A stretch of DNA of 64,000 nucleotides from Amphiscolops sp. MND2022 (taxonomy: Eukaryota), in NCBI GenBank assembly GCA_964187785.1, contig OZ076409.1:78618001-78682000 (forward strand), in the 5' to 3' direction. Position 1 is the first letter of the stretch. Every line of letters begins with the position of its first letter. Of the stretch, positions 2,627 through 64,000 are shown piece after piece. Made by a program: the position numbers and the translations under genes. The notes beneath the pieces were generated by a model, which searched no databases, was not told the origin of the DNA, and saw nothing but the letters and a program-made list of their open reading frames with translations.

Positions 2627-3641
2627 AAGAGATTATTGCAAGAGGCAAGAATTTAAATTAATATCTTGGGCTTGCAAAGTGAAAATGAACGGGTTGTTTT
2701 AATAAACAGTTCGCAACAGTAACGCATCAAAGTATCATCAAGATAATTCTGTCCCCGGGGCCACCAGTCCCGGTTATATATATTTGAATTTGCATGACAC
2801 TCAATAAAAAGGTGGTCATAATCTAAAAATAGCCTTAAGGGCTTTCTAAATATAGCTACAATCTATAAATAGCAGGCAACGTCAACATTACATCATGTAG
2901 ATCAAAGGTCCCTCTTGGCGGCAAATATGGCAGCGGGACCATGAGTCCGTTAGGACAAGCAACTGCTTACATGCATACTAAGCAACGTACTACATGTATG
3001 AAATACATATTACATGTATGAAATGCTTACTACATGTATAGATAGTAATTTTACATATATTCTAAACTAAATATATTGCGCAAATTACATATGAAGCAAC
3101 ACCATCAAACTAATTCTAAAATATTAAATCAGTCCTTTGAGGGCCAATAGCGCCTTTTATCAGTTATCAAAAGATTAATCATTACATAACCAGTACTGCT
3201 AGGTAGAATAGCACTCTCAATTAAAGCGCGGACTCAGTGTCCAATAGACTGGTACAGCCCAGCGCTTTATTAGCAGGCGGCATATAGCTGTCTAGTCCTT
3301 TAATTCTATTAAGCTAGCACGAGTAAAGGTTACATAACACTGCGCTATGATTGGATGACGAGTTAGTCGGACTTGCGGACCAAGGCGACAGGCAAGAAAA
3401 CATTTGAACGCGTTTCCTTTACCTGTACGCCTTGGTGTCCAATTAACTCGTATTAATGCATAGAATTACATAATATAACTTGCACAAAATGAAATATATA
3501 GAGTTTTACATGACTTTTTAGAGCAACAATAATAGTTTTCCTTGTAAGTTTTCTAATTTAATGGAAGGGTGAAGGGTTCTGCTTTCTTGTAACTATGGCA
3601 GATTGAGTATGTGTTGCCATCACAGGCGGACGCCTGGGACA
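2077..3641 (-). repeat. 5' LTR of element A (~1565 bp)
   Basis: TG...CA ends defined by homology to the B LTR start and by the PBS; the partner LTR is outside the window. Confidence 0.75.
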
Positions 3642-14102: not shown

Positions 14103-14117
14103 TAGAAACTCATTTTT

Positions 14118-31309: not shown

Positions 31310-31329
31310 GCCAGGAGCCTGGGGAGTGA
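31310..31329 (+). promoter_or_regulatory. Polypurine-tract-like sequence of element D
   Basis: ccaggagcctGGGGAGTGA directly precedes the 3' LTR. Confidence 0.65.
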
Positions 31330-35508: not shown

Positions 35509-37551
35509 TTATGAAGAATTTGTATCAAACTCGCCTTTGCTGATTACAACAAATGGGACCAAAGGTTAAGTCAGTAGAATTGGCTAAAAAAGTATATTAC
35601 GAAAAATGCTAAGAATTTTTTAATTCAACTTTTTCAAGCGCTCTTGAAGATATATTCAGAAAGTTCGCATGAATTCGAACTGTCTCAGCAGAAATTTTAA
35701 TCATTCAATTTACACGGAAACTGCAAGGCCATTGCTCAACTTTTCAGCCTGTGTGAACAAAGCAGTTTGTAAAAGATGTTCACTCCGAATGATCTCGGCT
35801 TGGATTTCAAATTGTGCCAACTTGAACAAATTCCCAATAGTCTGTACAAGTCACCTATCACATGCACTCCACCGTTTCAAAGCCTAGACCGGAATGACAT
35901 CTTCGATTTTATCAACTCAAATCCCATCCAGCTTTTCTGAACTTCTTTCATCTAGAAGCTTCCGCCAGATTAAAGAACAAGTCGAATAAATGTAATTTCT
36001 TCAAATTGAATGTAATCTATAGAACTTATTGACTGTAGAATCGTGTTTGTAGAATTTATAAAATCCAAATTTCAAGGTTCTGTCGTGGAGTGACTTTTAT
36101 CTAGGGAGTCGAGGAAAATGACCATGGTAAAACCAATAGCCCAAAAGCTTCTCCACAGATTTGTTTACAAAAACATGTTTAAATAGACACCATAATTAAA
36201 GGGGCCGTAAATTTAAACCAGATCGTGCAACTAAACTAATATTTTCAAGTAAAGCAAAATGTTTAAACCACGGGCCCATGGATTTTGGCTACGAATCAGG
36301 TAAACAAGAAAAGTTCGCCAGAGGTTATGGATTGAACGATACTAAGGCAAAAAGTTGCAATCTTGAACACTTCATTTTTTGCTGTAATTAGAGCCTTAGA
36401 TTTTGTCAGCACAAGAAGCACGTTCCAGACTAATTCTGCGGGTCGAAGCTATCTGATCTTGTTTTATTTCAGAGACGAATGAACTCGCAAACACATGACT
36501 AAATAGCAAAATTCAAAAAAACCTTCAGACGAAATGAACTAAACAACTGATTTGTAACAAGCAATTGGCAAGCGTTAGATTTGGCACTGTATACCTTGCC
36601 CTTTCGTTTTGAAGGAAAAATGTAGACCTACAAAATCAGAAATTGAGAGAAACGCTGAGGAAAACTAATCAAAAACGGAGCGAATAAGTCGAAAGAAAAG
36701 CGTTTTATGCCATACAAAAGCATTTGGCATTTTAAGAATCAACCTTGAACGACGACTACAGAAGAGAATACAATGACGAAAATCTGCATGACGTCTGAAT
36801 AACGTCAATTTTTATTATCTCTGCGATAGCAGCAAATTATTAAAATCTCAAGATTTCAACTTTTTCCTGTAAAATTTTTGTCGTGATGCTGAATAATCCT
36901 GATATTTTGTTCGGCAGTGAGTATAAGCGTGAGATTTAAATTTCTCATTCTGCCGACAACAAGTTGTTTCTCGTGCGATGGAACGAGCGTGTGGTAATTA
37001 TGCTTTCGTACGCCGAGTTATTTGGATGAAGCGAACGAGTGTTAATTATTCGTTCGCCGAGAGCTTTGACTGCAATCCAATGCGAATGCGAAACTTCGTC
37101 TACGCGTAGTAGTTATGTTTTCTTTAGTCCGAGAAGAATTAAAGCGGTGTAAACTGGTAGTGATTAATTGTGCGCTATATAAATGATTGAGATATGCTTC
37201 TATTATTAAAGATGAAAGCCTAAAAACAGAAATAATACTGTGTCCCCCAGGTGCCTATTAAAAATTTCAATAACTTGAAGCAGTGAAAAAAACATGGGTA
37301 CCAGCTCGACGCAAATTATAAATTCTAACGTTTTTTTAGAAAGCAGGGATTATGAAGTATGGGGTCAAGTAAACAAACTCAATTGATAAACTGGTTTAAT
37401 AGCCTTTAAATTTCGATCAGCTTAAACCATAGTGTAATCTGTACATCGACATTACAGTTATAATGTTAACTTCAACAGAGTCATTTTAAGTAAGCGCATT
37501 TCGCAAGAAACGGGTCCGACTATTACAGTGACTTTTTTCGTGGAGTCTGTT

Positions 37552-39297
37552 TGTCGCAGGCTGCCGCCTGTGACGGCACATTAATAACGACGTCAGCGGA
37601 AAACCAAGAATTTGTCCCAGGTACCCTACCCACGTTTTAAACTTTCCCTTACTGAAACTTATTTTACTAGTTAATCACATTCGTTTTGTTTATTCAAGTG
37701 CATTTTTATAATTGTTCGTGATATTAGTCTGTTAAAATTACGATTTGGAACTATCCAAATCAGGTTGTGTTTTGAGATTTGTAAAAGGAAGTTTGGTGTG
37801 TTGCAAATAGAGTGTTGAAATTAATCAAAGCGGTTACGTACAATAAGCAGGTTATTCGCGAGAAGGAAACGTGTTCAAGTAAGAAAACGTCCCTTCTCGG
37901 CGATGTAACTTTCAGTACGATTATTAGCCAATCAGAGCTTTCCTTTTGCTAATTATGAGTGCTTTACTTATGATGGCCGGATATGGCTAATTGACTAAGC
38001 GGTGCTAATTTATATCAGTCCCCCAGTCAAATGGACGGCTTCGGCCAGTTCGAGCATAATGATACCTTTGTTGCCTAATTGGATCAATACTTACGTGGAG
38101 TTATTAAAATCATGTTTTTAGTTTAAATAAATACGTTTGTGATGTTTTGGTGTTTGTATACTTTTAACTTGGATAAAGGGACAGTTAAGGCCTTTTACCA
38201 TGTCTTTCATATGCGCAGTACATGTTATGGATTTGGGCCTATTCCGGCCCTGATATGCGAGTGTATTTTCGTGAATATCGATGCAGTATTAGAATTCCAC
38301 ACATAGTAATGCATTTCGTTTTCAGCTTAATTTGCAGTAAACTTGTGCCGGCACGTGCCTTCATTTTACATTGCCATAAAATATGCAGGCTGTGGTATTT
38401 GTTTACATCACACCTGAAGTAGGCCTAACTGATAAATTGTTTGAAGTTGCTACTTAAAATGATGACTCTGAATACCATTCCTTAAATGTCCCCCGGAAAT
38501 ATGTAGTTGTCGGGGATTTTCCTATGATGATTGTGAAATCCTATGATTTGTCTTGATCAAAGTATGTAAAAAATGTGTGTCATCCTTCAGGGGTATAAAT
38601 ACCCATATCCCTGCAGGAGGACTCATACTTTGTACTTCTCTCCATTTGATAAAGACGTCCATAATACAAACGGTTTCACTGTTAATTTTCCGGAATTGAT
38701 AATTCAAGTCTTCAACCCGGTTCAGTCTTATGCCTACCACAAGAAAGCAAAAGAAAGCAAGGAAATCTAGAGGATTAGAAATTCTCTCTGACATTGAAAA
38801 CCTTGACATAATGTTAGGTGAAAATCACTTCAATGATACGAGGAGAGACGAAAGTCTCGATGGAACTTCCATTAGAAGGCAAGAAAGTATCATAAGTAAT
38901 AACTTGGAAAATGAGGAAATGGATCTCCATTCTGACCATAGAAATCTTGGGGTTGGGACTAGTACCGGGCACGACCGAAATTCAGCAAGTATAGATTCTC
39001 AAGCTGAGATCAATAAGTTGTCAAGTGAATTGAACTCTAGAATATCTAGAGAAATGTATGTAATGATGGACAGTGTTAGTTCTCAGATTCAGAGAGCCAT
39101 AAGTGACGCCATAAATAATCAGGTTTTGCCCCAGATTCAAAACGTCATTATGGCCGGTTCAGGACAGGAGACTAGAAGGGGATGGGAGAGATCTGACGAG
39201 AGACCGGAAAGTTATTCCGAAGTTCAGTGCAACGCGAAAACTAGAACTACCCTCAATAATGAACACGGTGATAAAACAAACCGTAACGTTCATGACA
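37552..39297 (+). repeat. 5' LTR of element B (1746 bp)
   Basis: Direct repeat of 57944-59691; preceded by TSD CTGTT and followed by the PBS. Confidence 0.95.
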
Positions 39298-40424
39298 TGG
39301 TGACAGGAGACAACGAATCTCCAAATCAAGTTCCTGAGTTTCTCACAGGACGAATCTCATCCAGAAATCACCTCGACAGGTCCTTTGAGGACATCAACCT
39401 CGACACGACGATCCCAGCACAAGAGAGAATCACTACGGCTGCTGACTCTGACCCCATCACTCGACTGGCAGACGTCTTGACTTCAATGCAGAATAGACCG
39501 ACAGCCCAACAACTTACCATACGCCCAGTCAACTCAAATACCATGACATTCGATGGCAAAAGCGAAAAATTCGAGCTGTTCGAAGACCTATTTCACTCTA
39601 TGATCAAGATGCAGCCAGAAATGACTGAGCAAATGAAGATCAACCACTTCCACTCTTTATTGAAGAAGAATGCTCTTCAGACATTCAGAAATATCAGCTC
39701 AAGCAACCGACAAACTCTAGAGGACGTATTAGTCATTTTTAGACGAAAATACGTCAAGCCCGTGTCACAGGCGACTGCCAAACATAAATGGCACCGTCTG
39801 GTCTTCGATCCCAATACGATGAAACTGCCTGATTTTCTCGAACAATTAAACCAGGGAGCCGAGAAGGCGTTTGGTGATCATGCGCAGAAAATGATTGACA
39901 GCTTGCTTTATGCAAAACTGCCACCAAAACTGAAGCGGTCCGTCAACATGGCCAGATTAGAAAATGGCTCCTACGATGAGATAGTTGCTCATTTGGAGAG
40001 AGAATTAGAGCTTAACGCCCTCGAGGAGTCAGATGACCTACCAATGGCCACAATGACCTCCTCGACTACAAAATCTAAAACTCCTCTGTCCACTGGGCAA
40101 ATGTCAGACATTACTTGCAATTACTGCAAGGAAAAGGGCCACATGGTCAAGGACTGCAAAAAACTGAAAAAGAAAAAAGAAAAAGATGCCCAACAAGGCA
40201 AGTCGACGCAGAAGAAAACATATCCGGAGTGTGGCACTTGTGGGAAAAAGAACAACCCGGAGGAGAGATGTTGGCAAGGTGCTGGTGCACATCTTAAACC
40301 CAAGCGCACTAGACCTGAGGACTCAACTGACAATAAGCCCAATCCCAAGGCTCAGAAACCTCAGACCAAACCGACATCATCGGGCTCCCAATCCTCATAT
40401 TCTAATGATGAGTCAAAAAACTAA
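38730..40424 (+). CDS. gag: Gag of element B, 564 aa; starts inside the 5' LTR
   Basis: CNYCKEKGHMVKDC and CGTCGKKNNPEERC knuckles; homologous to the A Gag. Confidence 0.93.
   Translation: MPTTRKQKKARKSRGLEILSDIENLDIMLGENHFNDTRRDESLDGTSIRRQESIISNNLENEEMDLHSDHRNLGVGTSTGHDRNSASIDSQAEINKLSSELNSRISREMYVMMDSVSSQIQRAISDAINNQVLPQIQNVIMAGSGQETRRGWERSDERPESYSEVQCNAKTRTTLNNEHGDKTNRNVHDMVTGDNESPNQVPEFLTGRISSRNHLDRSFEDINLDTTIPAQERITTAADSDPITRLADVLTSMQNRPTAQQLTIRPVNSNTMTFDGKSEKFELFEDLFHSMIKMQPEMTEQMKINHFHSLLKKNALQTFRNISSSNRQTLEDVLVIFRRKYVKPVSQATAKHKWHRLVFDPNTMKLPDFLEQLNQGAEKAFGDHAQKMIDSLLYAKLPPKLKRSVNMARLENGSYDEIVAHLERELELNALEESDDLPMATMTSSTTKSKTPLSTGQMSDITCNYCKEKGHMVKDCKKLKKKKEKDAQQGKSTQKKTYPECGTCGKKNNPEERCWQGAGAHLKPKRTRPEDSTDNKPNPKAQKPQTKPTSSGSQSSYSNDESKN
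39298..39309 (+). promoter_or_regulatory. Primer binding site of element B (TGGTGACAGGAG; tRNA identity uncertain, Leu-like)
   Basis: Immediately follows the LTR-terminal CA; absent after the 3' LTR. Confidence 0.85.
40415..40421 (+). promoter_or_regulatory. -1 ribosomal frameshift slippery heptamer A_AAA_AAC (gag-pol)
   Basis: Directly before the gag TAA; the -1 frame is open into pol; identical in element A (941-947). Confidence 0.85.
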
Positions 40425-43400
40425 CTTCGCCACGACTCCAATATAACGAATTAATATCTGTCCGACAGTACATCAGATCGGACCCTCCAACACAGACTTT
40501 CCACCAATACAATCAGCAATTGATGGGCTATCCCTCTGTTGTCTGGCAGCAGCAGATGGAAAAAGCCACCATCATCACTTACAATAACACCCATTTGTTC
40601 CAGAAACCAATTCCTGTTTGGGACCCTGATTACACCACCACCTTCACTACCCGGTTCAGGCCCATTCCCCTGATCGATGACTACAATCCAACATACATCG
40701 ATCCAGACTACAACAGAGATCCCTACTGGGACACCGAGCTTTACAACCAAGATTCACTACAATTTCAATATGTCCTGGACGATATTGAACACTATAATAG
40801 AACAGTCCACGAGAACCCTCCAATTACCCATAACAAGAAAACAAGAGCGCTAATTGAAAACTGGCAAATGAATGATGGCACAAACCATCCAGTGTTCCCA
40901 AACCCATTGGGGACCGAGACCCATGACAGCAATGCTGAACCCATACCACAATCATTGATAGACGAGAAACAGTTCCAAAATGTCTTAATCACTAGAGACG
41001 GTGAACCAGACTGTATACCCCTGTCAACCAACATCAACCTCAAATGCAAAAAACGCATGTTGTATTTCCCAATGGACTTTGGGGAATTGACCATTGACGG
41101 ACTCATTGACACTGGAGCGCTGTCCAGTGCAATTCCTGAAATGGACCTCCGGAAAATTCGACTTTTATCTCCACAATCCGTTATCCGGGAAGGTCCGCCT
41201 CCGAATTTCCAAATCATGGTCGCTAATGGGCAACTGGAAACTCCCAAGAGTACCATAGAGCTCAAATTTGAAGTTGGTGACATTGAATTCCACGAAATTT
41301 TCATAGTAATGGAACACTTGACTGGACCGATTATTGGACTGTTGTTCCTTCAGCGAAACCATACAGTTCTGGATATGCGACAAAGGATACTGAATTTCCC
41401 GTTCTTTTCGATGCAGCTCAAAACGGCTGACCATAAGTATTCAAATGTATTGGAACCAATTCTCAACCCTATTGAGATAACTATTCCACCAAACGATAAA
41501 GTCCTAATTAGGACCAATTCCCTACTCTACCCCGAGAATGCTGTCACTGGAATTTTGCAACCGAGCGACCTTCTACACGAAGAAGGCGACATCACATTTT
41601 GCCCAGCTTTGGTCACTCTGAATGACGGCAATATATTGATATCAGTGAACAATTTCACAGACCACCCTTATAAACTCAAAAAGGGACACCATATTGCCAA
41701 TTTCTCTGTCATGACACCAGAACAGATGAAGTATGTCAAACCGGTAGATCCGGCATCAACCTGGCACCTGTTGCAGAATGACCAGGAGCAAGCAGCCCAT
41801 TACGTCAGCAGTCTCATCAAGTCCAATAGAAATCCGCAAAACTCTGAAAATTATTGGTTCCCAACTCCAGAAAATCCTGGAAATCCTGAGGAACACACAC
41901 CTATACAAAAACGAATCCTACGCGAGTTACAGGCCCTACAGGACTTGGAGACACTCGACCCCACTACAGATGCAGAATCGCGTGCAAAATTCTTAGAAAA
42001 CTTTGACTGGAAAGATTCCACCCTTACTCCTGAAGACAAGGAGAAAATTGAGGAATTGTTAGTGGAATTCCATGACGTCTTTGCACGACACCGATTTGAT
42101 ATAGGCATGAACGAGGAATTCAAAGTGAAACTGACGCCTAAAGACGATTCCCCAGCCTATAGTCAAAGCCTTCCAGCTCCTATCAACTTGAAGGAGGACA
42201 TCCTAGTTGAATTAGCCGTGTTACACAAATATGGTATAATAACCACACTGACATTCTCGAAATATGCAAGTCCAATATTCGCACAAAAGAAGCCGAATGG
42301 GAAACTCCGACTCTTGGTTGACTTGAGAAAAATCAACAACCTCATATCGGATGATTATATCAACAATAATCACCCCGTCAGTACACTAGTTGATGCGCCC
42401 AACACTTGGCAGGCAAAAAACTGTTCTGTAAATTAGACTGTTCGCAGGCATACCACTGCCTACCAATGGCCGACCAACGCTCAATCGAAATGTTGGCTTT
42501 CAATTTTGCCAGTCGCACATTCGCTTACAGACGTTTGGCACAAGGCCTTAGTCGGTCACTATCCGCATTCTCGAGTTTCATGAGAGAATACCTTGACAAA
42601 GTCATTAAAGCGGATCAGTGTGCCCAGTATGTGGACGATATCGGCATTGCAGCCAATGATGTTGACCACCTCATGACGAACCTGAGAGCTACGTTCAAAT
42701 GCATTCAGGAAGCAGGCCTTAAGTTAACAATGCACAAATGTCACTTCGGTGCAAAAGAAATTGATTTTCTCGGACGAACAATTACCCCACAAGGCGTCAA
42801 ACCCCAGAAACAGAACGTGCAAAACTTTCTGGAAAAGACCAAATTCCCGAAGTCGAAAAAGGCTTTACAACGTTATTTGGGATTCCTAAACTACTACAGG
42901 AATTATGTCCCAAGACTCTCCGAACGCCTTGCTCCATTCTACAAGATGCTCAAAAGTGACGAAAAGGTCCTAGTATCGAAAGAATTAGTCCAACAATTCG
43001 AACAAATCAATAAAGCAATAGACAAATGTTGCGACTTGGCCCTACAGCAACCCATTCCAAACAAGCAAATAGCACTAATGACTGATGCAAGCTTTGGTGC
43101 AGCCGGGTACGCGGTCCTAATCGAAGACGACCCAAGCCAGAAATTTACGTCGCTCAGAAAATCGTATGCACCAGTCGCATATGGATCAAAAACTTTCACC
43201 CCAGCACAGATCAAAATGTCAATTTATGCCAAGGAATTCCTTGCAATCTATTTTGCATTCAAAGAATTCGGACATATCTTCTGGGGTGCGCCGAAACCGG
43301 TCATCATCCTTACAGACAACAAAGCTGTCACGAGATTTTTTCAAACAAAAATAATACCCCCAGCCCTGTGGAACGCGTGTGATTATGTCATTCAGTTCAA

Positions 43401-45625
43401 TTTTGTCATAGCACACATCCCAGGGGTACAAAATACAGCTGCCGACTATTTGTCCCGACTGGAAGCAGACCCGAAGGACAAATTGGTGATGAAAATTCGC
43501 GAAGATGTACAAACACTACCAATCGAAATCAATGTCCAATCCGCAGGGGTGTCACAAGAAGAACAAATCTACTACACCAATGACGACGATGAGACATAAG
43601 AACAGTTGTGGGCAAGAAAAGAAGCAATCAGGATAAATCCAGCAACTGATGAGCCCACTGTTACTATACAAACTCTGTCAACAAATCTGGTCAAGCAACA
43701 CCCCGATATACAGGTCCGGTTGAAGAGAACGAACCAGATCATTATCGAGCAATCCAAAGATGCGGTACTACAACAATTGAAAGCAAAACTGCTTCATGAA
43801 GAGTATTCAGAAACTACTGCACCAGGATGCCCGATATAGACATTACGCAAACAATCTGGAACGAATTGTACTAAAGGACGAAATCCTGACAAAACAATAT
43901 TTCGATGAAACAGGGAATGTTAAATACCATCAAATTTTACTCCCGCAACATTTACTTCAGGAACTGCTTAAGTCTCTCCACGGGACAGCACATAAACATC
44001 CTGGGATTTCAAAAATGTTACAGGAAATCCGACAGGGGTATTACTACCCTAGCATGGCTAAACACGTCAAAAAGTGGGTAGAAGGGTGCGAACAATGTGC
44101 CAGAGACAAAAGAGTCCCTAACGCAACGATCACACCTGAGCTGCTCAACTTGCCCGAATGGGACCTTGGACCTGAAGACGCCATGCAAATCGACCTATTG
44201 CCGCATCTTCCCCCAAGTGGAGGGTATGAAAATGTCCTAACAGCAATAGACGTATTTTCCAGATATTTGTTCGCATATCCCCTTACGGACGCATCAGCGA
44301 TCAATGTAGCAAAAGCGCTCATTGACATTATGACTAAACACTCATATCTACCAACGACTCTTATCACTGATAAAGGTACTGCATTTACTTCTACAATTAT
44401 CGCGGAGGTTACGCAGATTTTGGGCATCATACTCAAATGTGCAACGACGAAACACCCGCAGACAATTGGGAAATTGGAGCGAACTCATGCCTCATTGAAA
44501 ACAAATCTCAAGATGGCATGTGGAGAATATCGCCGACAATGGCACAAATACTTGCCATTAGCAGTACTGAATCATAATACTAGTTATCACGCCAGCATCG
44601 GTTGTGAGCCAACGAGAGTATTCCACGGAAGAATTCCATTTAATATTTTGGATCACAAGCTTGGAAATAATTCAAACCAGCAGATTAACCCCACAACCGA
44701 ATTTGCTGAAGAAATCCAAAACCGGACAAAAATCCTGATTGACAAAACGAAACAGAACATTATGCAGTCGTATATTAAGTACAAAGAATATTACGACCGC
44801 AAAGCAAAAGCCGCTCCACTAAAGGAGAACGAATACTGTTTTGTCTTACAGCCGAAAGCGGATAATCAAGGATCAAAAATTCCATTCCGCGATTACCGTT
44901 GGGTGGGACCATTTGTAGTCCAAAAAGTTTTGCCAAATGAAAACTATATAGTACGACGGATCAATACGAACAAAACTCAAATTTTGCATCGCATTCGTCT
45001 TAAGAAGTTTGTCCCCAATCAACCGCTTGAGGATAATTTCCGAGAACAACAGTTGCAGCCAGATGAAGAAATTGCCATTCCGCAAGATGATTTATACGTC
45101 ATAACGTGGGAAACCGACTTTGGCGAGCAACTAGTTACACGAGGCAACGAGACTATTCCGACCAGCATGCCGAATGGCGAACAGCCGAATGCGCCAGAAG
45201 CGAATACAAATGACGTAGCCGAGAACGAAGCGGATTACATAATCACGAGTGACGAAACAAGTTACGCTGACCACGCGGCGCGGAGCCGGAATAAAAGATT
45301 AAATCATGACGTCACAAAAAAGAATGAAGCTAGTGAAGCGGCTAGCAATGACAAATCTGATTGGCCGAATCCGGCCGTTTCCCCAAAAAATCAAGAAAAA
45401 ACTTTGCCGAATACGGATGAAAGACCAAAAAATGATGAAATTCCCTCAGAAAGAAATTTGACGAATGAAAACGACGCACAAAATTCTCCAAAAAGGGGGG
45501 ATGATATTATCGTGCCCGAAATATCTGAAAGCGATGCTAGAAATGAGAGTCTGAGCCCTAGAGGAGGGAAACATAATCTCAGACCTAACCCCAACCCAAA
45601 CTACTCAGAAGACTACAGATACTAG
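40421..45625 (+). pseudogene. pol: Pol of element B: protease, dUTPase-like spacer, RT, RNase H and integrase (frameshifts near 42395 and 43810, stop at 43597)
   Basis: GLIDTGA, LRLLVDLRKIN, QYVDDIGI, MTDAS, AADYLSR, LHGTAHKHPG..CEQC, TDKG, LERTH. Confidence 0.94.
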
Positions 45626-48600: not shown

Positions 48601-48911
48601 GTGGACAGGATCGGCAGGTCCTGAGATGAAAGATCTGGTCCAACCTATTTTTTTGAAGAACTCCTCTTTCATGGGGACTCCCCGTCGTGAGGGCCTCCGG
48701 TCATTTTTCCGTTTTTTGGGCCTGGAGGTGGTCCGTGCCGTGGTCCGAGTTTGCTCCCTCAACTCCTGTAGGGTGGTGTCTTGACTGCTGAACTCTGATG
48801 TGTCCGGCTCATTCTGTTGCTGACCAGAAGAAGGTTGGGCTTCGGTTGAAACTTGCAGTGGGGCGGCAGGGTTTTTGAAGGACCGAGTTATTAGGTCCAT
48901 CTCTGTGGCAC

Positions 48912-49830
48912 TGTAACGGCTGCTTGCCCTTATCCTGCGCTGAGGCTTGACAAGCTTTACGCCGCCCTGATCCGTTGCTTAGTGCTGTGGACCGTCACTA
49001 AACAATTCCTGGTTTCTTATTTTAAAGGACTGTATCTTTTGACTGGTGGGTCCGATGTGACCCGTGGAATCTCCTGCGATTCCTCTGTTCACTGAATTGG
49101 ATCCGATGTGATCCTGCACACACTTCCCTCACTGTATCTTCACGCGCTCCGGCTCTCCAACTATGAGAGTAGCTACTTAGTCGCTCTAACTCTAGCGAAA
49201 AGTTGTGAAGATTGAGAAGTTGATTATTAAGTCTTGCGGTCCTGAGACCCAACTTGACTATAGCTATTCAGTGGAGAAAATCTCTATCTAATAATAGTAT
49301 ACATATCGTTTACAATTCTACAGTAAATATAAGCAAATATCAGTTAAAATATGTTGTATAAATAAATGACATTTAAGTGAATTATTAAAGTTATTGGCTA
49401 TGTAAACAAAGCACATGGTGGTTTTGGCATGTTGGTTAGGTGGGTTAGAAAGTATGTTTACACTATGTAAACATTATCAATTCAACAGAGTTACATTCTA
49501 ATGTGGTCATATAGGTAAATAACAAAGTTTACATTTTTGGTTCAATGACCTTGAATACTACACATGTGAGGGGTAAAGGGGGTTATAATGGGGGAATGAA
49601 CTTGAAACTTAGCCGGTGTGTTCGTGTTAGGTATCTGCGTATGTGTGCCAAGTTTCAAGTCTCTACGGTTATTAGTTGCAGAGAAAACCCTGACTGGGGG
49701 GGTTTTTCGATTTTGTGACGATTGACTTCTCTTCAAATTTTCATCTAAGTTTTTAGGAGTTTAAGTTCTCGTATCTCAACCAACATGTTCTGAATCGAGT
49801 TTCTCTGCCTTCTGATGACTGGCGCCAACA
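48912..49830 (-). repeat. 3' LTR of element C
   Basis: Direct repeat of 54062-54980. Confidence 0.95.
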
Positions 49831-50203
49831 TTGCCGGCCCTGTTTTTCTCCTGAAAAACACTTTCGTAGAACATGGGTGCCAGTTTCACTACTGGTCTTT
49901 TGAGTTTGTCATCGATTGTCGTTGTCGTTTTGAGATCTCCAGGTTCATTGTCATGTTTGACGGTTAATTACCCTGTTCTTTTTCTGCTGCAACAAAATCC
50001 CAAACCATATTCCTGTTCGCTGACCATAAGGTAGTTTTCGGCAAGTTCACATAACACATCCAAATATTTCCAAAAACAGTTTTGCTCATTTGAAGGCGTG
50101 GTTTTCCCAATTATTACAAACTTCATCGTCAATGTCTGACATTCTTCGTGTTCAATCAATTGCTTTCTTTTAGAACCTTTAAAAGGTATGATACAACCAT
50201 GCT

Positions 50204-53158
50204 TCATTTCATTTGACTTAGCTCCCATCGACATCCAAAGAATATGTTCCCAGAATAAGTCGAGAACATCTCCAGCCAGTTTCCCAATATCTGCTTTGCT
50301 TCGCAATTCATCATCAAAATTGACTGACCTCGGGGGAGATATGTCAAACTGATTTCATTCTCTAATATTTCCATAATCTTGATCTGGATCTGCCGTTCTT
50401 GAAATGTACTTGAATCAACAATTATCATAATCAGTAGATAAAGAGAATTTCCAACATTACGACAGTTGAAGTTCTCCCGTTTGTTTTCGGTGTTCTTTGT
50501 GCAACTAAAGAAAAATTTGCGTTCGGAACTCAGTTGCTGCGCTTCATTTTGCTTCTTCCCTTCTGACACGTCGTATTCCGTGTCTACATCCATGTTTTCT
50601 TCCAATAACTGCAATGCTTTGGAGTTTCGCTTTCGCTTGTGTTTGTAGAACGTCACCCAGCTTCTCTCACCACAAAACTCCAACTTCTTAGCGTCTGGGT
50701 TTCTACGAGGCTCCACTAGATCATAGGAAACTTCCAATTTTCCAAAAGTCCCATTCTGAGTCCACATTGTCTTGAATGGTGCAGCCGGCCTTTTGCAAGA
50801 CCCACCGCTCCAACTTTCTGTTGTTGGTACTTCCAATGAACACATTTGCGTTCTTGTCACTGATGATTTGTCTATCAGATCAAACCAAACTGTGTCCTTT
50901 TGTATTCCATTCTCGTTCAACTGAGTTCCTTCCGTCATTCCATGAATCAGGTTTGAGAGGGGTTCAATTTTCCAAGCTCTTTTCTTCGGTCGCTTGCGGT
51001 GACCTTTGCTCAATTGAGTTTCAACAATCCCGTTAGCCTGTGCCACCGCATCCATCCCAGAGTTCCCATTTCCAATCCAAAGGTTCCAAACATTATTCTT
51101 ACTCGGGATAGTATCTTCAACAAAGCTTACTTTGAAGTCAAAATGAAATTTCTTTCCAAACGATGTATTCATGGCTTGTGTTTCACCTTCATTGCCTTTC
51201 ACGGGTTTGTCATGTTTCATTGCAACGTGGCATAGCTGTTGACACATGACTTCTTCATTCAAACTTTTTTGCAGTGCAAATTGCTGCTCATTCACAAATC
51301 CATAACTTTTGACAAAATCAAAGCATTTTTTGTTTCCTTCTTCAAGAAGTAGGGTACTGTCATGAAACATCGTCACTTCGAATAATTTCCCTTGTTGTAC
51401 GTCATGTTGTACAGTGATAACTTCTGCACTCTCTAGCAGCAGTTCCAATTGCACACTCAATTCTTTTGAAGATTGTTTGCCTAATGAGAATGTTAAGCTT
51501 CTATGCTCTTTCCTTGTTTCCGTCATTGTGTACTTCAAGTTCTGCTCCCTTAGCACTATGGAATGATCACTAATGACCAAGTGAATCTCTTCTTCCACAA
51601 CGTGTTTGGTATCCACGAGGAGAGTTTCTGAACGGAAGTCTTGCCGACCATTGTCTACAATGATTGTTTCTGACCAGTTTTGTATGCTTTCCGCTTTGGG
51701 GAGCTTCGAGATTCCTTTGTTTCCAACGTTCACTTCTGGTTGTGATGTTGCTCCTTTCACGTATGCTCCTTTATCAGCTTTTGTTCTATTTCCCCAATCA
51801 ACTCGCTCATCGGCTTTTGTGAGAGATTTTGAGTCCCTCATAGGTGCGGAGAACTTTCCTTCGTGAGCTAATTTCACTGCATTCTCTAATTTCGAGTGTG
51901 CTGATACTGCAATATTGGACTTAGTCCCATTCTCGGCTGTTTCTGTTTTGTCTGTCCATCTTGAGTCTTCTGTGAAACTCTCGACTGATGCAATACTTTG
52001 GAAGCTAGTCCCCTGGCTGCACGTCGCTTCCGCTATTTGTCTTTCTTTTTCAGCTATTCTAGCTTTGCGGGCAAGCTCTTCATGCAAGTCTGCTATTTCT
52101 CTTTCAATTGCTTCGCGCTTCAGTTTCTTCAGTCGAGTTTGTAGTTCTTCTTGCTCCTTCTGAGCTTTTGCTTTCGAATAAAATACTCGTCTAGCACTTG
52201 AAGTTTTCGAAATCACTGAGCTTCTGTTGCTTCTTATTTCAGCCAGTTGTGGATGTTTGCCCAGTTCCTCTATTTGTAATGATTCAAGCTCACTTCTTTG
52301 GACTGGGAATTCATCCGACTTCTGATCCTCCGCTTTCATCATTGTTTGGAGAACCGAACGCTCTTCATTAGACTCCTTCGAGCTAACTGTTGCTCTGTTG
52401 TCCATCTGGATTTGTCGATCTGTTTTGTCAGACACCTTAACCTTTTCTTCGGGTAGTGATGTCTCATCGTTGACTGGGTTTTCCATTTCAGATACGCTGT
52501 CTCCCTTGACACAGCAAGGTTCTTGTTCATTGGTCCTTCTTGACCGCGTCAGTGATTCCTTTTCACTAGCAGTTTTCTTTAAACAGCTTTGTTTTGCCTG
52601 ATGGACACGACTTTGCCTCAATTTTCTTGTTCGAGGGCATCTCATAGCAGCGTCTGTAGACGTTCTATTTGCCACCTGGCTCTGTTTCAACGCGGTTGTC
52701 CCGTCAATTGGACACTTTAAGATTTGCTTCACATCGGGGAACCAGTATCCCCAACTCAATTCCATTTTCACAAAGCATTCTTCCCATTCAGTCACACTTC
52801 GACTTAGCTGTCTTTGCGTTTCTTCATTTGTAAGACCCAACATAAAGTCTACACAAAACAGTAACGCTTGTCTTCTGTCGCGGTATTCAATTACCCAATC
52901 AATCAAGTTGCTTCTGGATACAACAGCTTCTTTCTCATCGAGCTTGTCATCCAAGTCTTTTACTAACGTATGGAGCTTTTCCACATGTAGGGGTACAATA
53001 TTCCAATAGAGGCTCCACGCGTACCAATCTGACGCATTCATCAAATCTTTTGGTGTGAGTTCCATCAGTGTTTGACTCTGCTTTGTGTTTCTTTCTTCAA
53101 ACACTTTTGTCATTCGAGGGTGCTTCATCATTTGACTTTCCTTCTTTCTGGCATTCAT
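50204..53158 (-). CDS. 984-aa ORF of element C; Gag-like coiled-coil region but no recognisable RT/RH/IN catalytic motifs
   Basis: Uninterrupted 2955-nt ORF; the SVISKTSSARR..KAKAQKEQEELQ..coiled-coil segment resembles a BEL Gag N-terminus. Confidence 0.6.
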   Translation of the reverse strand: MNARKKESQMMKHPRMTKVFEERNTKQSQTLMELTPKDLMNASDWYAWSLYWNIVPLHVEKLHTLVKDLDDKLDEKEAVVSRSNLIDWVIEYRDRRQALLFCVDFMLGLTNEETQRQLSRSVTEWEECFVKMELSWGYWFPDVKQILKCPIDGTTALKQSQVANRTSTDAAMRCPRTRKLRQSRVHQAKQSCLKKTASEKESLTRSRRTNEQEPCCVKGDSVSEMENPVNDETSLPEEKVKVSDKTDRQIQMDNRATVSSKESNEERSVLQTMMKAEDQKSDEFPVQRSELESLQIEELGKHPQLAEIRSNRSSVISKTSSARRVFYSKAKAQKEQEELQTRLKKLKREAIEREIADLHEELARKARIAEKERQIAEATCSQGTSFQSIASVESFTEDSRWTDKTETAENGTKSNIAVSAHSKLENAVKLAHEGKFSAPMRDSKSLTKADERVDWGNRTKADKGAYVKGATSQPEVNVGNKGISKLPKAESIQNWSETIIVDNGRQDFRSETLLVDTKHVVEEEIHLVISDHSIVLREQNLKYTMTETRKEHRSLTFSLGKQSSKELSVQLELLLESAEVITVQHDVQQGKLFEVTMFHDSTLLLEEGNKKCFDFVKSYGFVNEQQFALQKSLNEEVMCQQLCHVAMKHDKPVKGNEGETQAMNTSFGKKFHFDFKVSFVEDTIPSKNNVWNLWIGNGNSGMDAVAQANGIVETQLSKGHRKRPKKRAWKIEPLSNLIHGMTEGTQLNENGIQKDTVWFDLIDKSSVTRTQMCSLEVPTTESWSGGSCKRPAAPFKTMWTQNGTFGKLEVSYDLVEPRRNPDAKKLEFCGERSWVTFYKHKRKRNSKALQLLEENMDVDTEYDVSEGKKQNEAQQLSSERKFFFSCTKNTENKRENFNCRNVGNSLYLLIMIIVDSSTFQERQIQIKIMEILENEISLTYLPRGQSILMMNCEAKQILGNWLEMFSTYSGNIFFGCRWELSQMK

Positions 53159-53529
53159 TTGTTCAGATGACTCTTTTGTTTCACTGGGGGCTTTCGATCT
53201 TCACAATTTTTTCTTGTACTCTTTGTCACTTTTCCCAACTCTGCAATTTCTCAGATACAAAGCGTCAACTGCTCAATCCGGTAATCAATCGTCAATTCTT
53301 GAAGAATCAACACAATACTGTCGATTATACTTGCCTTCTTTGACAAACTTGATTGTCTCGGTGGATCTTGTCCCTCTGACTTGATCCCTTTTCTTTACTT
53401 GGTGGATTTACTTGCAATGACGTCTCAGACCAAGTCTTTGCTTCAATCAGGAGCACGTGTCCAAAGAATACAATTCGTCTCAAAACTAGAATAGATGCAC
53501 AAATACTTTCAGAGTGTCGCTAAGCCCAA

Positions 53530-53853
53530 CTCCCAGAGTACACAATAGTCCCAACTCCAGAGTCACTATAGCCCAAACACCCAGAGTCACAATAGCCCAA
53601 GCTCCCAGAGTCACAATAGCCCAAGCTCCCAGAGTCACAATTGCACAAGCTCCCAGAGTCACAATTGTCAGCACTCCCAGAGTCACAATAGCACAATCGC
53701 CCATACACACATTGGCACAATCGCCTGATACACAGCTGCACAATCGCCAAATACACAGTGGCACAATCGCCCAATTACACAGTGGCACAATCGCCTGATT
53801 ACACAGTGGCACAATCGCCTGATACACAGTGGCACAATCGCCTGATACACAGT
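53530..53853. repeat. Two adjoining 23-24 bp tandem arrays in the 5' leader of element C
   Basis: (cccagagtcacaatagcccaagct)n grading into (tacacagtggcacaatcgcctga[t])n. Confidence 0.9.
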
Positions 53854-53944
53854 GGTCCAAGCTCTCAGAGCTAGACACTTGCTCTTCTAGGGCAATCTTC
53901 TTCAGTTGTCCACCAACGAGTCGTCTTCGTCCTCGTCTTCTTCT

Positions 53945-54059
53945 TGTCCGGGTCGTCCACCAACGAGTTGTCCGGGTCGTCCACCAACGAGTTGTCCGGG
54001 TCGTCCACCAACGAGTTGTCCGGGTCGGCCACCAACGAGTTGTCCGGGTCGGCGGACCA
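53945..54059 (-). repeat. PBS of element C (54043-54059) and four tandem 24-bp PBS-derived copies
   Basis: Unit tggtgg(a/c)cgacccggacaactcgt repeated; the first unit is the PBS, 2 nt from the LTR. Confidence 0.85.
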
Positions 54060-54061
54060 AA

Positions 54062-54980
54062 TGTAACGGCTGCTTGCCCTTATCCTGCGCTGAGGCTTGA
54101 CAAGCTTTACGCCGCCCTGATCCGTTGCTTAGTGCTGTGGACCGTCACTAAACAATTCCTGGTTTCTTATTTTAAAGGACTGTATCTTTTGACTGGTGGG
54201 TCCGATGTGACCCGTGGAATCTCCTGCGATTCCTCTGTTCACTGAATTGGATCCGATGTGATCCTGCACACACTTCCCTCACTGTATCTTCACGCGCTCC
54301 GGCTCTCCAACTATGAGAGTAGCTACTTAGTCGCTCTAACTCTAGCGAAAAGTTGTGAAGATTGAGAAGTTGATTATTAAGTCTTGCGGTCCTGAGACCC
54401 AACTTGACTATAGCTATTCAGTGGAGAAAATCTCTATCTAATAATAGTATACATATCGTTTACAATTCTACAGTAAATATAAGCAAATATCAGTTAAAAT
54501 ATGTTGTATAAATAAATGACATTTAAGTGAATTATTAAAGTTATTGGCTATGTAAACAAAGCACATGGTGGTTTTGGCATGTTGGTTAGGTGGGTTAGAA
54601 AGTATGTTTACACTATGTAAACATTATCAATTCAACAGAGTTACATTCTAATGTGGTCATATAGGTAAATAACAAAGTTTACATTTTTGGTTCAATGACC
54701 TTGAATACTACACATGTGAGGGGTAAAGGAGGTTATAATGGGGGAATGAACTTGAAACTTAGCCGGTGTGTTCGTGTTAGGTATCTGCGTATGTGTGCCA
54801 AGTTTCAAGTCTCTACGGTTATTAGTTGCAGAGAAAACCCTGACTGGGGGGGTTTTTCGATTTTGTGACGATTGACTTCTCTTCAAATTTTCATCTAAGT
54901 TTTTAGGAGTTTAAGTTCTCGTATCTCAACCAACATGTTCTGAATCGAGTTTCTCTGCCTTCTGATGACTGGCGCCAACA
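54062..54980 (-). repeat. 5' LTR of element C
   Basis: Direct repeat of 48912-49830; followed on the minus strand by the PBS. Confidence 0.95.
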
Positions 54981-57246: not shown

Positions 57247-58032
57247 ATGAGCAAATACAACTTAGCTAGAAAATTGTTCGAGCTGGAGGCATACGACTCA
57301 GATGATTCTGAAAGATCAGCAATATACATTTCCAGCAGTGAGGAAGAGTCATCAGACTGGGAAACCGACTGCTCCACAGACACGGAGCAACTTATTGCAA
57401 GAATCGAAAGGGAAGTCACCTCCAGCCTCATGCTAATTGGGGGTCGCATAATGACTATGGAGGAACCTTCAGGAGACGAACCAGAAGCTGGCCCCAGTTC
57501 TTCCCAGATGCGAACAGATGTGACTCCGAAACTTGACCACAGGTACTTTGACCAGGAGATGTGTTATGCTCCCCCAAAGAAGTTGCGAAAGTCAAGGATA
57601 GAGGTTTGCAAGACTCTATTGCCAGTGCCAGAGTCACCCATGTCACCGCCCGACCATGAGAGAGGGCCAAGTTTGGACTCCCCCCTGATGCAGCCTACAA
57701 TGGGTGGTTTTCACGCGTCGTTCCACGTACAGAACACAAGGCCGTACGAGGACGTGAGCAACAAACTGTATTCTGGCTGTATGGTGTGTGGCAGATCCTC
57801 AGAAGCAATAAAGAAAGAGAAAGTAGAATGGTATGTTGCAAGGTCCAAGCCACGAGGAGAGCCTGAGTACATCACGAAAATCAGAAGAGAAGCATATGAG
57901 AACGGTCTCAACGCCGGGGCATTCCTCTTCATAACACCCGCAGTGTCGCAGGCTGCCGCCTATGACGGCACATTAATAACGACGTCAGCGGAAAACCAAG
58001 AATTTGTCCCAGGTACCCTACCCACGTTTTAA
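57247..58032 (+). CDS. 261-aa accessory ORF of element B (acidic N-terminus, CxxC motif) ending inside the 3' LTR
   Basis: Intact ATG-TAA ORF; the last ~29 codons lie in the LTR and have a protein-level homologue at the start of LTR A. Confidence 0.75.
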   Translation: MSKYNLARKLFELEAYDSDDSERSAIYISSSEEESSDWETDCSTDTEQLIARIEREVTSSLMLIGGRIMTMEEPSGDEPEAGPSSSQMRTDVTPKLDHRYFDQEMCYAPPKKLRKSRIEVCKTLLPVPESPMSPPDHERGPSLDSPLMQPTMGGFHASFHVQNTRPYEDVSNKLYSGCMVCGRSSEAIKKEKVEWYVARSKPRGEPEYITKIRREAYENGLNAGAFLFITPAVSQAAAYDGTLITTSAENQEFVPGTLPTF

Positions 58033-59691
58033 ATTTTCCCTTACTGAAACCTATTTTACTAGTTAATCACATTCGTTTTGTTTATTCAAGTGCATTTTTA
58101 TAATTGTTCGTGATATTAGTCTGTTAAAATTACGATTTGGAACTATCCAAATCAGGTTGTGTTTTGAGATTTGTAAAAGGAAGTTTGGTGTGTTGCAAAT
58201 AGAGTGTTGAAATTAATCGAAGCGGTTACGTACAATAAGCAGGTTAATCGCGAGAAGGAAACGTGTTCAAGTAAGAAAACGTCCCTTCTCGGCGATGTAA
58301 CTTTCAGTACGATTATTAGCCAATCAGAGCTTTCCTTTTGCTAATTATGAGTGCTTTACTTATGATGGCCGGATATGGCTAATTGACTAAGCGGTGCTAA
58401 TTTATATCAGTCCCCCAGTCAAATGGACGGCTTCGGCCAGTTCGAGCATAATGATACCTTTGTTGCCTAATTGGATCAATACTTACGCGGAGTTATTAAA
58501 ATCATGTTTTAGTTTAAATAAATACGTTTGTGATGTTTTGGTGTTTGTATACTTTTAACTTGGATAAAGGGACACTTAAGGCCTTTTACCATGTCTTTCA
58601 TATGCGCAGTACATGTTATGGATTTGGGCCTATTCCGGCCCTGATATGCGAGTGTATTTTCGTGAATATCGATGCAGTATTAGAATTCCACACATAGTAA
58701 TGCATTTCGTTTTCAGCTTAATTTGCAGTAAACTTGTGCCGGCACGTGCCTTCATTTTACATTGCCATAAAATATGCAGGCTGTGGTATTTGTTTACATC
58801 ACACCTGAAGTAGGCCTAACTGATAAATTGTTTGAAGTTGCTACTTAAAATGATGACTCTGAATACCATTCCTCAAATGTCCCCCGGAAATATGTAGTTG
58901 TCGGGGATTTTCCTATGATGATTGTAAAATCCTATGATTTGTCTTGATCAAAGTATGTAAAAAATGTGTGTGTCATCCTTCAGGGGTATAAATACCCATA
59001 TCCCTGCAGGAGGACTCATACTTTGTACTTCTCTCCATTTGATAAAGACGTCCATAATACAAACGGTTTCACTGTTAATTTTCCGGAATTGACAATTCAA
59101 GTCTTCAACCCGGTTCAGTCTTAATGCCTACCACAAGAAAGCAAAAGAAAGCAAGGAAATCTAGAGGATTAGAAATTCTCTCTGACATTGAAAACCTTGA
59201 CATAATGTTAGGTGAAAATTACTTCAATGATACGAGGAGAGACGAAAGTCTCGATGGAACTTCCATTAGAAGGCAAAAAAGTATCATAAGTAATAACTTG
59301 GAAAATGAGGAAATGGATCTCCATTCTGACCATAGAAATCTTGGGGTTGGGACTAGTACCGGGCACGACCGAAATTCAGCAAGTATAGATTCTCAAGCTG
59401 AGATCAATAAGTTGTCAAGTGAATTGAACTCTAGAATATCTAGAGAAATGGATGTAATGATGGACAGTGTTAGTTCTCAGATTCAGAGAGCCATAAGTGA
59501 CGCCATAAATAATCAGGTTTTGCCCCAGATTCAAAACGTCATTATGGCCGGTTCAGGACAGGAGACTAGAAGGGGATGGGAGAGATCTGGCGAGAGACCG
59601 GAAAGTTATTCCGAAGTTCAGTGCAACGCGAAAACTAGAACTACCCTCAATAATGAACACGGTGATAAAACAAACCGTAACGTTCATGACA
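57944..59691 (+). repeat. 3' LTR of element B (1748 bp), including a copy of the gag N-terminus (59124-59691)
   Basis: Direct repeat of the 5' LTR; followed by TSD CTGTT. Confidence 0.95.
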
Positions 59692-60438
59692 CTGTTCACT
59701 CCGTCGATAGTTAAGATGGGCGCTTCCCAAGCAGGCGGCCGTCGGTTTGATGTCTGGCGAGGACTAAATATCTTTGTTTGCGAACCTTGAGATGGCGAAG
59801 GGTCCCCCTTAGTGTTTCTTGGCAATGGCCGACTTTTTTTTACAAGAAATCTTCTTTCATCAGTCTGGATATTTTTTTGATATTTTCGATGAGAGTAGGG
59901 CGTTTTCGAGGCGGCAGGTAGTCCCTTCGAATATTTTTTACCACCCTGAATATTAAAAAATTTTTTCAAAAGCCACTCTGAGCATTTCTATGACACTTTG
60001 CACTTTTTGAGCTTTAAGACCTTTAGACCGTCCCATCTTGTGAATCATAAACTGCTTTTTATTAACGTCGATACTAGGTTATCAGTGTACAACATGTTCT
60101 AAAGAAAAGTTTCCACTAATAATAAATTCAAATGTTTGAAAAAATTTATACGAAAAAGTTGAGTCTACATTCAATAATGATTTCTTTTTAAACTGTTCGG
60201 AAGTGGCAAAAAGAAAACTTGCATCAAAGCAAATTAAACTGAAATCGGCTGGCATCTGAATAGTTTGTATTCAAATTTCTGATTTCCTCGTTCGTCGCAA
60301 TTTTTCTGAATACAGTACGGATGATATGATCCGACAACATCAATCTTAGAGGTCACTTTCAACATGTGGAATATGCACATGTTATCAATCTTGTTAGTAA
60401 AATTTCAACAGCAGAATTTTCAGTTGCTCCTGGACTTT

Positions 60439-61142: not shown

Positions 61143-63183
61143 CTTAAGACCCAATAATCGTGAGTTGGGAAAGATACCAATAAAACAAGATTTTTTTCGG
61201 GAATCAGTTACACTTCTTGCAATAGTTATAGCCTTACTTTAGTTGATACACGATGACATCACAGATAAAAACTGAACTCCTCAGTTAAAATGTACAAGGT
61301 TGAAAAATTTTATGTCATTCTCTTAAATTAGGATGTCTTACGCCAAAGTCTCCTTAGTTAAAATCTCCCGTATTATGAAATTATGATTAGCTACGTTCGT
61401 ATACCAATAGTGACCTAAATGCAGGACCGAAGCGAATAAGAGAGACGTGCCATTACTTTACCAGCGCGAGCGACTGGTTTTACGAAGGCGGAGCTGAAGA
61501 AGTGCGAAGCACCTCTGGGGAAGGAACACCGAGTGATACAACCAGTGCTTTGATTTCATTCGATTGAGAAGAACTTAACCTAGGAGCTTTTGACGTGGAA
61601 GATTTCAACATGGATGACACTGTTACATAACAAGTATCGCAAGCGAAAACTATGAAAGCTCATTATATTCTTTTACAAGCATTTGACAACAAAATTCATG
61701 AGCAAAATTTCGTCCAGATTTTGGGCAGAATTACGATGTTCTCTTCGGTTTCCAAAGCGAATCAAGTTTTAAACAAAAGCTGTTTCACATTGTATATTGT
61801 CGTTTTGGAACTTTGAAATTAGCAATATTTCGAAAATCACTGTTCTGAAAAAAAACTTTCCGGGATTATTTTTGAAGCTTTGGTATATTTTACTAAGTCG
61901 TTTTTTCTGACAAACTGGTTTCTCAAGAAAATGAACAGCTAATTGAAAAACAGTTCTAATTTCATGGATACACTACAGTAAATTTGTCGAGTAAAAACTG
62001 AACTGTATTTACTGTTTCAGACTTTTAAGCTATGTAATAATTAAACGACAGCGTTTCCAGAAAACGTGTTGGCTTAAAAACTTACAGGTCAGAGTCGTAG
62101 GTACAGGATGTGTGTTGGTATTTTCCGTTGTTAATAGTGGTTTGCGAGATAATGCGTGATATTTTTTTAAATACGATACCAAACACTTCTTTGATTCCAA
62201 AACAAAAAACACTTCTGTAAATAATCGAAAATCCAAAGGTTTTTGCTCATGAGTTTTTGTCAAATGAAAATATAAAATCTTAGTGTGCTTTCAAATATTT
62301 CGCTGGTAAGTTTGAGTGTTTTAGTTTTTCGCTACCCTTGTCTTCTCAATTAAACTAACCAAGAGAACAAGTTAGCAATTAAAATGGTTTCGTTCATAGA
62401 ATGGAACAATGAATTCACAAGGGTTAATAATGTTGGTTGCCGCCAATGAGTGTTAGAATGCCAGAATCATATGGGCTACATATTCAGAGCCTGTACAGAT
62501 CACTGGTACTTTCTTCGATTTTTCGATCTTTTTTTCGACGTTCCTGCTAGGTATTCTGATCTTACTAGTATCAAGAAAATAGCCATGTAATCCATTGCTG
62601 GCTATGGACACCATCTCATGAAACGCCATGAAAAGCTAAGGTTATCTAATCGAACTTTGAATTGAACTTAATTGGTGATTTTGGCAACCCGTGAATGATA
62701 TGATTATGTACAGATCGAATATTTATGTCCTCACCATCTGTGACGTATTTCAATATACGTATTTCAAGTCGTCGGCTTTTGTTAAGCACTAATCATTTTG
62801 AAAACGTGACGTGATAGCGTTTGAAGACATTGGCGAAATAGATACGCATGTTGGGTTGTGAAAACAAAACCATTACGCAATTGTTTTGAAAACATTAAAC
62901 TTGTCATTGTGAAATTATTTAGGAGGCCGTTGCTTATGAGAATTGCTGGCGTGCAATTAGGAAAGGTAAACCGGAATAACAGAACATTTGTGGGGCACTT
63001 TGCGGATATGTACAAGAAAATAATCTTATCTGAAGGTAGAAGAGACTCCCAGCGAAGGCGGATCTGATTTAATAACACAAGCACGCATGAACAGTTTAGG
63101 AGCGTTTGAAGCTCAAGTCAGAAGATCTCGGATTAGGAAACGTTAGATAAACATGAAAAACTCGGGATTGTTTCACATGCACC

Positions 63184-64000
63184 TGTTACGACTATTTATC
63201 GGGGTGATTTTTCGATTAGTCGCAGTGGTTTTATTTTTGATTGGTGTCGAAGTTATGTTTTCCGGAATATTTTCGGACTCAGAATCTGTTTCTTCAGCAG
63301 TAGCTGTGACAGTTTGTTTTTTAACAGGAGCAGCTATTAGTTTTAACATCTCCTTTTGATTTTCGGCTAAAATTTTGGTGAGATCAGACATGATTTCCTT
63401 TCTTAGTGAAGACTTGATTTCCTCTAGATTTTCAGTGGTTACTCTAGGAGATTTACTTGACCCCGCTACGGGATTTAGGTTTTGATTAACCTCAGTTATT
63501 GGGGTCTCCATTTCGGTGGAAACTAGTTCTTCAACAGCTTTTCTCTTCTGGCATCTAGTAGTCATTTTAGATAGAGCGAGAGAGAGGTTGTTCTTTGGAA
63601 AAATTTGAATTCTTCAAAGAAATATGGTTTTCGAAACGAAGTATTAACGGAGTAGTCTAGGAAACAGATTAACTTATTTTAAAAATCCCTAGGTATATAT
63701 ACTTTCACAGCATCATTTGTTCCTCACCTAAAAATTCCTAGGAATCCTTAAAATCGGTTTTGTTCAACAAAAATGCTTAATCATCGTTATTATTTCAACC
63801 CCTTTATTACTTGTTCATGATTTAAAATTCCTAGTCACGGATCCCTTACGGAGTACTTGTTGAAATCATTTTTGTTCATTAACATCATTTCCGGTTTGAT
63901 CGCGGAAAAGGCGGCAAAACAAGTGTCTAGTTGAAACTTTATCGCGGAAAGCACGCGGGCGTGAACGATGATTCACTTTACGAGCAGTAAACTTTCAACT
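63184..64000 (-). repeat. Probable end of a 3' or solo LTR of a third related Gypsy family, containing a gag N-terminus (63565-63184)
   Basis: ORF starts MTTRCQKRKA (cf. MPTTRKQKKA / MPSTRRQKAK); has an acidic/coiled-coil profile; reaches ...CGTAACA with no PBS after it, then stops in flanking DNA. Confidence 0.55.

Follow-up and report, generated by a model that had tools for sequence, protein, structure and literature searches.

Gag codons inside the LTRs of an abundant Ty3/Gypsy-type retrotransposon clade in Amphiscolops sp. MND2022

Can an LTR encode a substantial part of a structural protein, and what becomes of that part each time the LTR is copied? The question is raised by a 64,000-nucleotide stretch of Amphiscolops sp. 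MND2022 DNA (contig OZ076409.1; hereafter the window), in which an initial annotation had noticed gag codons within the LTRs of two retrotransposons, A and B, and a similar design in a third LTR at position 63184. The features of these elements are collected in Table 1.

Table 1. Features of elements A, B and C and of the third element in the window.
Feature	Position	Strand	Remarks
PBS of A	2065..2076	-	sequence and phase as in B
5' LTR of A	2077..3641	-	1,565 nt; 183 gag codons, ATG at 2626; TSD ATTTG
5' TSD of B	37547..37551	+	CTGTT; identical 5-mer at 59692-59696
5' LTR of B	37552..39297	+	1,746 nt; TG...CA
TATA box of B	38594..38601	+	136 nt upstream of gag ATG; predicted TSS ~38620-38640
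Complete gag ORF of B	38730..40424	+	564 aa; capsid-like region ~aa 270-430 and zinc knuckles, all 3' of PBS
LTR-coded gag head of B	38730..39296	+	189 codons: basic tip, predicted long helix, disordered linker
Predicted long helix of head	38979..39164	+	aa 84-145
Junction ATG	39297..39299	+	terminal A of LTR and TG of PBS; internal Met190
PBS of B	39298..39309	+	12 nt, complementary to 3' end (with CCA added) of host tRNA-Leu(CAG); translated VTG
pol of B	40412..45625	+	PR, RT, RH, IN; broken in this copy into three ORF pieces
Element C	48912..54980	-	unrelated LTR element nested in B; 919-nt LTRs, TSD GGCAC
Sense accessory ORF of B	57247..58032	+	crosses start of 3' LTR; last 29 codons in U3
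3' LTR of B	57944..59691	+	
Shortened gag head in 3' LTR of B	59124..59714	+	189 codons and 7 from flank; without sign of selection
3' TSD of B	59692..59696	+	CTGTT
Gag head in 3' LTR of third element	63173..63565	-	127 codons; 3 codons into flank; LTR end at 63184

A reading frame that crosses the LTR end and the primer-binding site

The limits of the B LTRs are set by their TG...CA ends and by the target site duplication (TSD) on each outer side; in a self-comparison of the 64-kb window the two LTRs are 99.0% identical. The 5' LTR holds 189 whole gag codons and one A, and the frame continues from this A through the tRNA-Leu primer-binding site (PBS) as ATG GTG ACA GGA (MVTG). Element A has 183 LTR codons and an identical junction. 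The counts of about 189 and 183 codons and the in-frame junction ATG in both elements had all been given by the initial annotation and are confirmed. Its extension of the design to the LTR ending at 63184 (minus strand) holds for the family but not within the window: here it is a 3' LTR and has no PBS, the 5' part of its element being outside. At the third element's own 5' junction, and in the 5' copies of its family, CA is directly followed by TGGTGACAGGAG, with 127 LTR codons.

Copies of the three families are ~15.6-16 kb long and consist of the LTR, gag, pol (overlapping gag in a different frame), ORFs in antisense orientation, and a sense ORF running into the 3' LTR. In B the antisense ORFs lie between pol and the 3' LTR (45873-48978 and 54903-56087, minus strand), split by the nested element C. 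The 3' sense ORF is homologous between B and A (29% identity, E 1e-24), and the third family has an ORF at the same position. As these ORFs run into U3 and the gag head occupies the other end, both LTR ends are coding. In a Pfam search neither the gag head, nor any antisense ORF, nor the sense ORF at the 3' end matched a family.

The layout is absent from elements C and D of this window, whose long ORFs begin outside the LTR. Element D (13375-32058, plus strand) is an 18.7-kb LTR element with LTRs of ~730 nt, a 2.5-kb leader, a gag-like ORF of 1,000 aa and further long, unassigned ORFs at 26265-30374. The window also contains a tandem satellite of 179-nt period (8655-10717) and a MITE-like inverted repeat pair (60439-60576 and 61005-61142; 138 nt, 96% identical, spanning ~700 nt).

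The exact junction of CA and PBS, CATGGTGACAGGAG, occurs 7,527 times in the 1.07-Gb genome, compared with one occurrence of a control, and these junctions need not all be intact elements. CA directly precedes the PBS in 7,527 of the 7,993 genomic matches of the PBS 12-mer. This motif search fixes the zero spacing between CA and PBS, and leaves the reading phase and the upstream frame free. Reading frames were examined at 90 junction loci (from the first 100 listed in order of position, with one and the last nine left out): the gag phase is open for at least 100 codons upstream of the junction in 67, and each of the other two plus-strand phases in none. Over 70 loci, the last 300 nt ahead of the junction contain 78 stops in the gag phase versus 482 and 799 in the other phases. 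The open frame is thus not due to chance. At 38 of the 70 loci internal gag is open for 300 or more codons, and 36 of these 38 are also open for 100 or more codons upstream.

Three different heads used as queries gave at least 150 genomic matches each, those listed being mostly 5'/3' pairs ~14 kb apart. Across families the LTR-coded heads comprise ~103-216 codons and the Gags are 21-94% identical to that of B; the frame through the junction is retained even among families whose heads have almost no sequence in common. A gag gene beginning inside the LTR is the layout of a large and very abundant clade of Ty3/Gypsy type. Several of its families also include tandem elements with a common LTR, in which a PBS follows a second LTR ~14 kb on (L069, L145/L146, L151/L152).

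Outside this genome, no relatives were found in viral contigs. Metagenomes yielded 17 short loci, only one of which (L274) has a PBS; it is degraded and closed upstream in all phases. In L274 (positions 1-2100), CA stands directly before a 17-nt PBS of tRNA-Leu type, and helical-looking coding text follows the PBS, a weak hint that the primer site may have moved into Gag.

Selection on the head, its copies and the junction ATG

Between elements, the LTR-coded codons are conserved as protein. Of 32 pairs, eight were saturated; the other 24 gave defined pairwise dN/dS values of 0.07-0.36. Tree-based estimates of omega are 0.13-0.22 in all five groups, with omega = 1 rejected in each (2dL 77-589), and 0.06-0.12 for internal gag; kappa was fixed at 1, which lowers omega somewhat. 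By this measure the codons inside the LTR are genuine gag, subject to purifying selection, and the neutral evolution that the initial annotation had named as an objection to its own reading is not what we find. The picture differs after insertion. Differences between the 5' and 3' LTRs of the same insertion amount to 64 nonsynonymous and 21 synonymous changes, against a neutral expectation of 4.0:1 (27 of 41 pairs; 11 third-family pairs and three B pairs with head length changes were left out), and the 3' side has 33 and 9 (omega 0.91), which is also neutral. Low omega between elements combined with neutral drift within LTR pairs indicates that selection operates in the course of replication and not on 3' copies once inserted.

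The structural model of Gag (mean pLDDT 60) has a confident helix at residues 84-145, disorder over the junction and a helical region at ~270-430. A Foldseek search with the latter returned retroviral-type capsids in all top rows (PNMA2, HERV-K, dArc1), each match being weak (E 0.014-0.04), and the profile matches of Gag to DUF1759, Retrotrans_gag and Ty3_capsid are weak as well. An ESM Atlas search with head residues 1-189 gave only a 0.75 match and was uninformative. The head comprises a basic tip and a long predicted helix, and the putative capsid lies after the PBS. The head helix is predicted to be amphipathic and might oligomerise.

This last property bears on the fate of the head copies in 3' and solo LTRs, which had been proposed to make truncated Gag or to fuse to flanking host sequence, as a dominant-negative factor useful to the host or as seeds of new genes. 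The truncated ORF in the 3' LTR of B is real, every LTR carries a TATA box and a head, and solo LTRs exist (L011, L014). Among 30 position-ordered B-family LTR ends (of 325), the head is intact in 12 of 15 LTRs that are not 5' LTRs; but it is intact in the same proportion of 5' LTRs (12 of 15), as their youth would predict. The head lacks the capsid, its reading frame extends only 2-52 codons into the flank, and the changes in 3' LTRs are neutral, as described above. Neutrality and short read-through speak against the idea that hosts generally select such heads as dominant-negative factors or as new genes, and we consider such a role very improbable, although a few domesticated 3' or solo loci among the thousands are possible.

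The junction ATG had likewise suggested long and short Gag isoforms. A second, used start at this position would yield a capsid-only Gag, with Ty1 p22 as a precedent (PMC4551931); p22 is made from a subgenomic RNA. MVTG is invariant in 47 of 47 aligned Gags, the capsid and zinc-knuckle homology lies entirely downstream of the junction ATG, this ATG has G at +4, and the first ATGs of B and A have a pyrimidine at -3. The invariance, however, follows of necessity from the primer and the CA terminus: CA directly before any tRNA PBS (TGG) spells ATG. The alternative phase CA-TGG-TGA is closed, so that the in-frame ATG was one of two options and was fixed once. The base at -3 of the junction ATG varies (G 36, A 14, C 13, T 7 at 70 loci). 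Because there are 13 upstream ATGs in B, and at least two in each of 27 representatives, scanning would not reach the junction ATG, and a short isoform would require an internal or subgenomic RNA. We regard its use as a start as improbable.

Predicted transcript start and strong-stop DNA, and mosaic heads

In 16 of 27 representatives a TATA-like box is found 110-170 nt upstream of the gag ATG, compared with 0-5 of 27 in other 60-nt windows; the remaining 11 have no TATA in this modal window. Transcription is likely to start just after the box, ~100 nt before the ATG. The predicted promoter of B lies upstream of position 38730; a start downstream of it, the other objection named by the initial annotation, is not suggested by this indirect evidence. 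The initial annotation had estimated R and U5 at more than 560 nt. We arrive at more than 568 nt, and from the predicted TATA box and the edge of a swapped block described below, ~670 nt is likely. With a cap shortly downstream of the TATA box, minus strong-stop DNA would be ~670 nt (660-680) long and would carry the entire Gag head. No poly(A) signal was found at a conserved position; signals occur in 8 of 27 representatives in the 100 nt before the ATG, a count equalled by two other windows. One B-family lineage (L016, L018, L025, L139) has U3 and 5' leader sequences unrelated to those of L001 (~50% different) and a near-identical gag head; its TATA box lies at an unchanged distance.

With regard to priming, the tRNA-Leu-end pattern has 817 matches in the genome, one of five loci inspected being called as a tRNA; this pattern search was used in place of a general tRNA search (41 scored matches). 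Most of the 817 matches belong to a tandem array on one strand with ~296-nt spacing (G000:C8:35587798-35650079), which would represent a large supply of primer tRNA. A purine-rich polypurine tract (PPT) before the 3' LTR is absent from B (57910-57943) and from the third family, both of which still have 99% identical LTR pairs; A has GGGGGAG at this position.

Several elements are mosaic around the head. L256 differs from L234/L242 by 0-7% in U3 and 0-9% in the internal region, versus up to 34% from -700 to the PBS, and the left edge of this swapped block lies 35-45 nt after the TATA box. The swapped block of L107, relative to L103/L245, extends from about -650 to the PBS. Divergence also steps down at or near the PBS in L112, L104/L117, L250 and L169/L184; for L112 and L138, there are 81 differences in the 200 nt before the PBS versus 6 in the 300 nt after it. 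Further breakpoints are found within the head (-160, -135 and -55 codons) and in internal gag (+39, +200 and +270). In a systematic scan the LTR-side steps were spread from -75 to +15 codons and did not fall sharply at 0; three LTR-side bins held 24 covered events, the upstream side always being the more diverged, versus 0-5 per internal bin, with events grouped by eye or by greedy cover and hence not independent. A breakpoint in L018 might be taken as a sign of a long R, but switching of templates within a long U5 would account for it just as well.

An intermolecular first strand transfer is described as joining the R/U5 of one RNA to the U3 of the other, which results in a mosaic LTR (PMC6894440). 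The blocks of L256 and L107, spanning from near the TATA box to the PBS, have the footprint expected of such a transfer, and strand-transfer shuffling of Gag heads between related elements is likely on this sequence evidence. The alternative is that LTRs recombined or underwent gene conversion on the chromosomes, or that ordinary copy-choice produced the mosaics, with no particular evolutionary consequence of the long U5. The breakpoints all along gag fit this, and thousands of homologous LTRs would be available as substrates for recombination at the DNA level. Yet both edges of the two blocks coincide with the points where strong-stop DNA would begin and end, and in the swapped elements the non-coding U3 is nearly identical where the adjoining coding block has diverged more. 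On balance we find this alternative rather unlikely.

We favour the following explanation, which we consider probable as a whole. Gag starts within the LTR, and its frame runs on across the LTR end and the tRNA-Leu primer site; transcription presumably begins just after the TATA box, and one full-length Gag is presumably made from the first ATG. The head is part of the predicted strong-stop DNA, and a jump of this DNA to a second RNA packaged alongside would exchange the head between elements. The junction ATG would be an internal methionine, dictated by the CA end and the CCA of the primer, and the heads in 3' and solo LTRs would be passive by-products of LTR duplication.

Relation to known elements and implications

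In a copy of the third family, the pol domains are arranged in the order PR (254-360), RT (665-830), RH (897-1030) and IN (1222-1391). Membership of Ty1/copia (Pseudoviridae) was rejected on this account, as the integrase does not precede RT; the elements are Ty1-like in gag layout alone. Like Ty3/Gypsy elements (Ty3 itself, and capsids of Arc/PNMA2 type), they have PR-RT-RH-IN order, TG...CA LTRs with TSDs of 4-6 bp (5 bp in A and B), a tRNA primer site after the 5' LTR, zinc knuckles and a capsid-like fold of retroviral type, the last from weak matches. The best RT matches in the PDB, Ty3 among them, have E values of 1e-25 to 1e-22. The nearest RT relatives are 43-51% identical and unnamed, while named ones are ~30% identical. 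Named Ty3/Gypsy clades include Mag, Osvaldo, mdg3/micropia and Tor. By domain order, ends, primer and capsid our elements are of Ty3/Gypsy (Metaviridae) type.

In Ty1, about a dozen gag codons lie in the LTR. The Ty1 features that recur here are a gag ATG inside the 5' LTR, as described for Ty1 in PMC3522557, an open frame through the PBS and coding selection. The Ty1 PBS is reported inside GAG at RNA nt 94-104 (PMC4974528), so that only a short stretch of gag can be in its LTR, whereas here 100-216 LTR codons encode a folded-looking domain and a predicted ~670 nt precede the PBS. The domain order also differs from that of Ty1, as does the primer, which is tRNA-Leu instead of tRNAiMet. The present layout is an extreme form of the Ty1 layout, clade-wide and coding. 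Ty1 p22 is the C-terminal part of Gag, whereas the piece left over here is the N-terminal head, which has no capsid and shows no selection in 3' LTRs. Ty1 p22/p18 is presented in PMC4551931 as a truncated Gag that comes from the element itself and blocks transposition, the precedent for the dominant-negative idea considered above.

The 5' UTR of Ty3 is described as R and U5 and as non-coding (PMC4974528). In contrast, U5 is coding here, ORFs cross both LTR ends and a classical PPT is absent in two of the three families examined. L256 and L107 fit the mosaic of U3 and R-U5 predicted in PMC6894440; in the mosaic LTRs described there regulatory regions are mixed, while here the jump would exchange a third of Gag. 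Our search, of mainly open-access literature, returned no account of gypsy elements whose LTR holds 100 or more gag codons, and an earlier description is possible.

A wider reading is that a Gag domain moved into the U5 of a clade that came to dominate the genome, that each obligatory first transfer recombines three modules (the promoter in U3, the R-U5 head and capsid/pol), that the primer site may have shifted downstream into a Gag linker, and that both LTR ends became coding. We hold the arguments for and against this reading to be evenly balanced.

One LTR can hold a third of Gag. Where annotation software assumes LTRs to be non-coding, such Gags would be shortened and thousands of heads in 3' and solo LTRs miscalled as orphan genes. 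Reverse transcription likely tolerates strong-stop DNA several times longer than that of Ty1, and the effects of the first strand transfer would extend from regulatory DNA to protein sequence. With ~7,500 junctions in one genome, strand-transfer recombination could be mapped on a population scale, and the cap site placed from sequence alone. The most interesting testable consequence is the swapping of modules by the first strand transfer.
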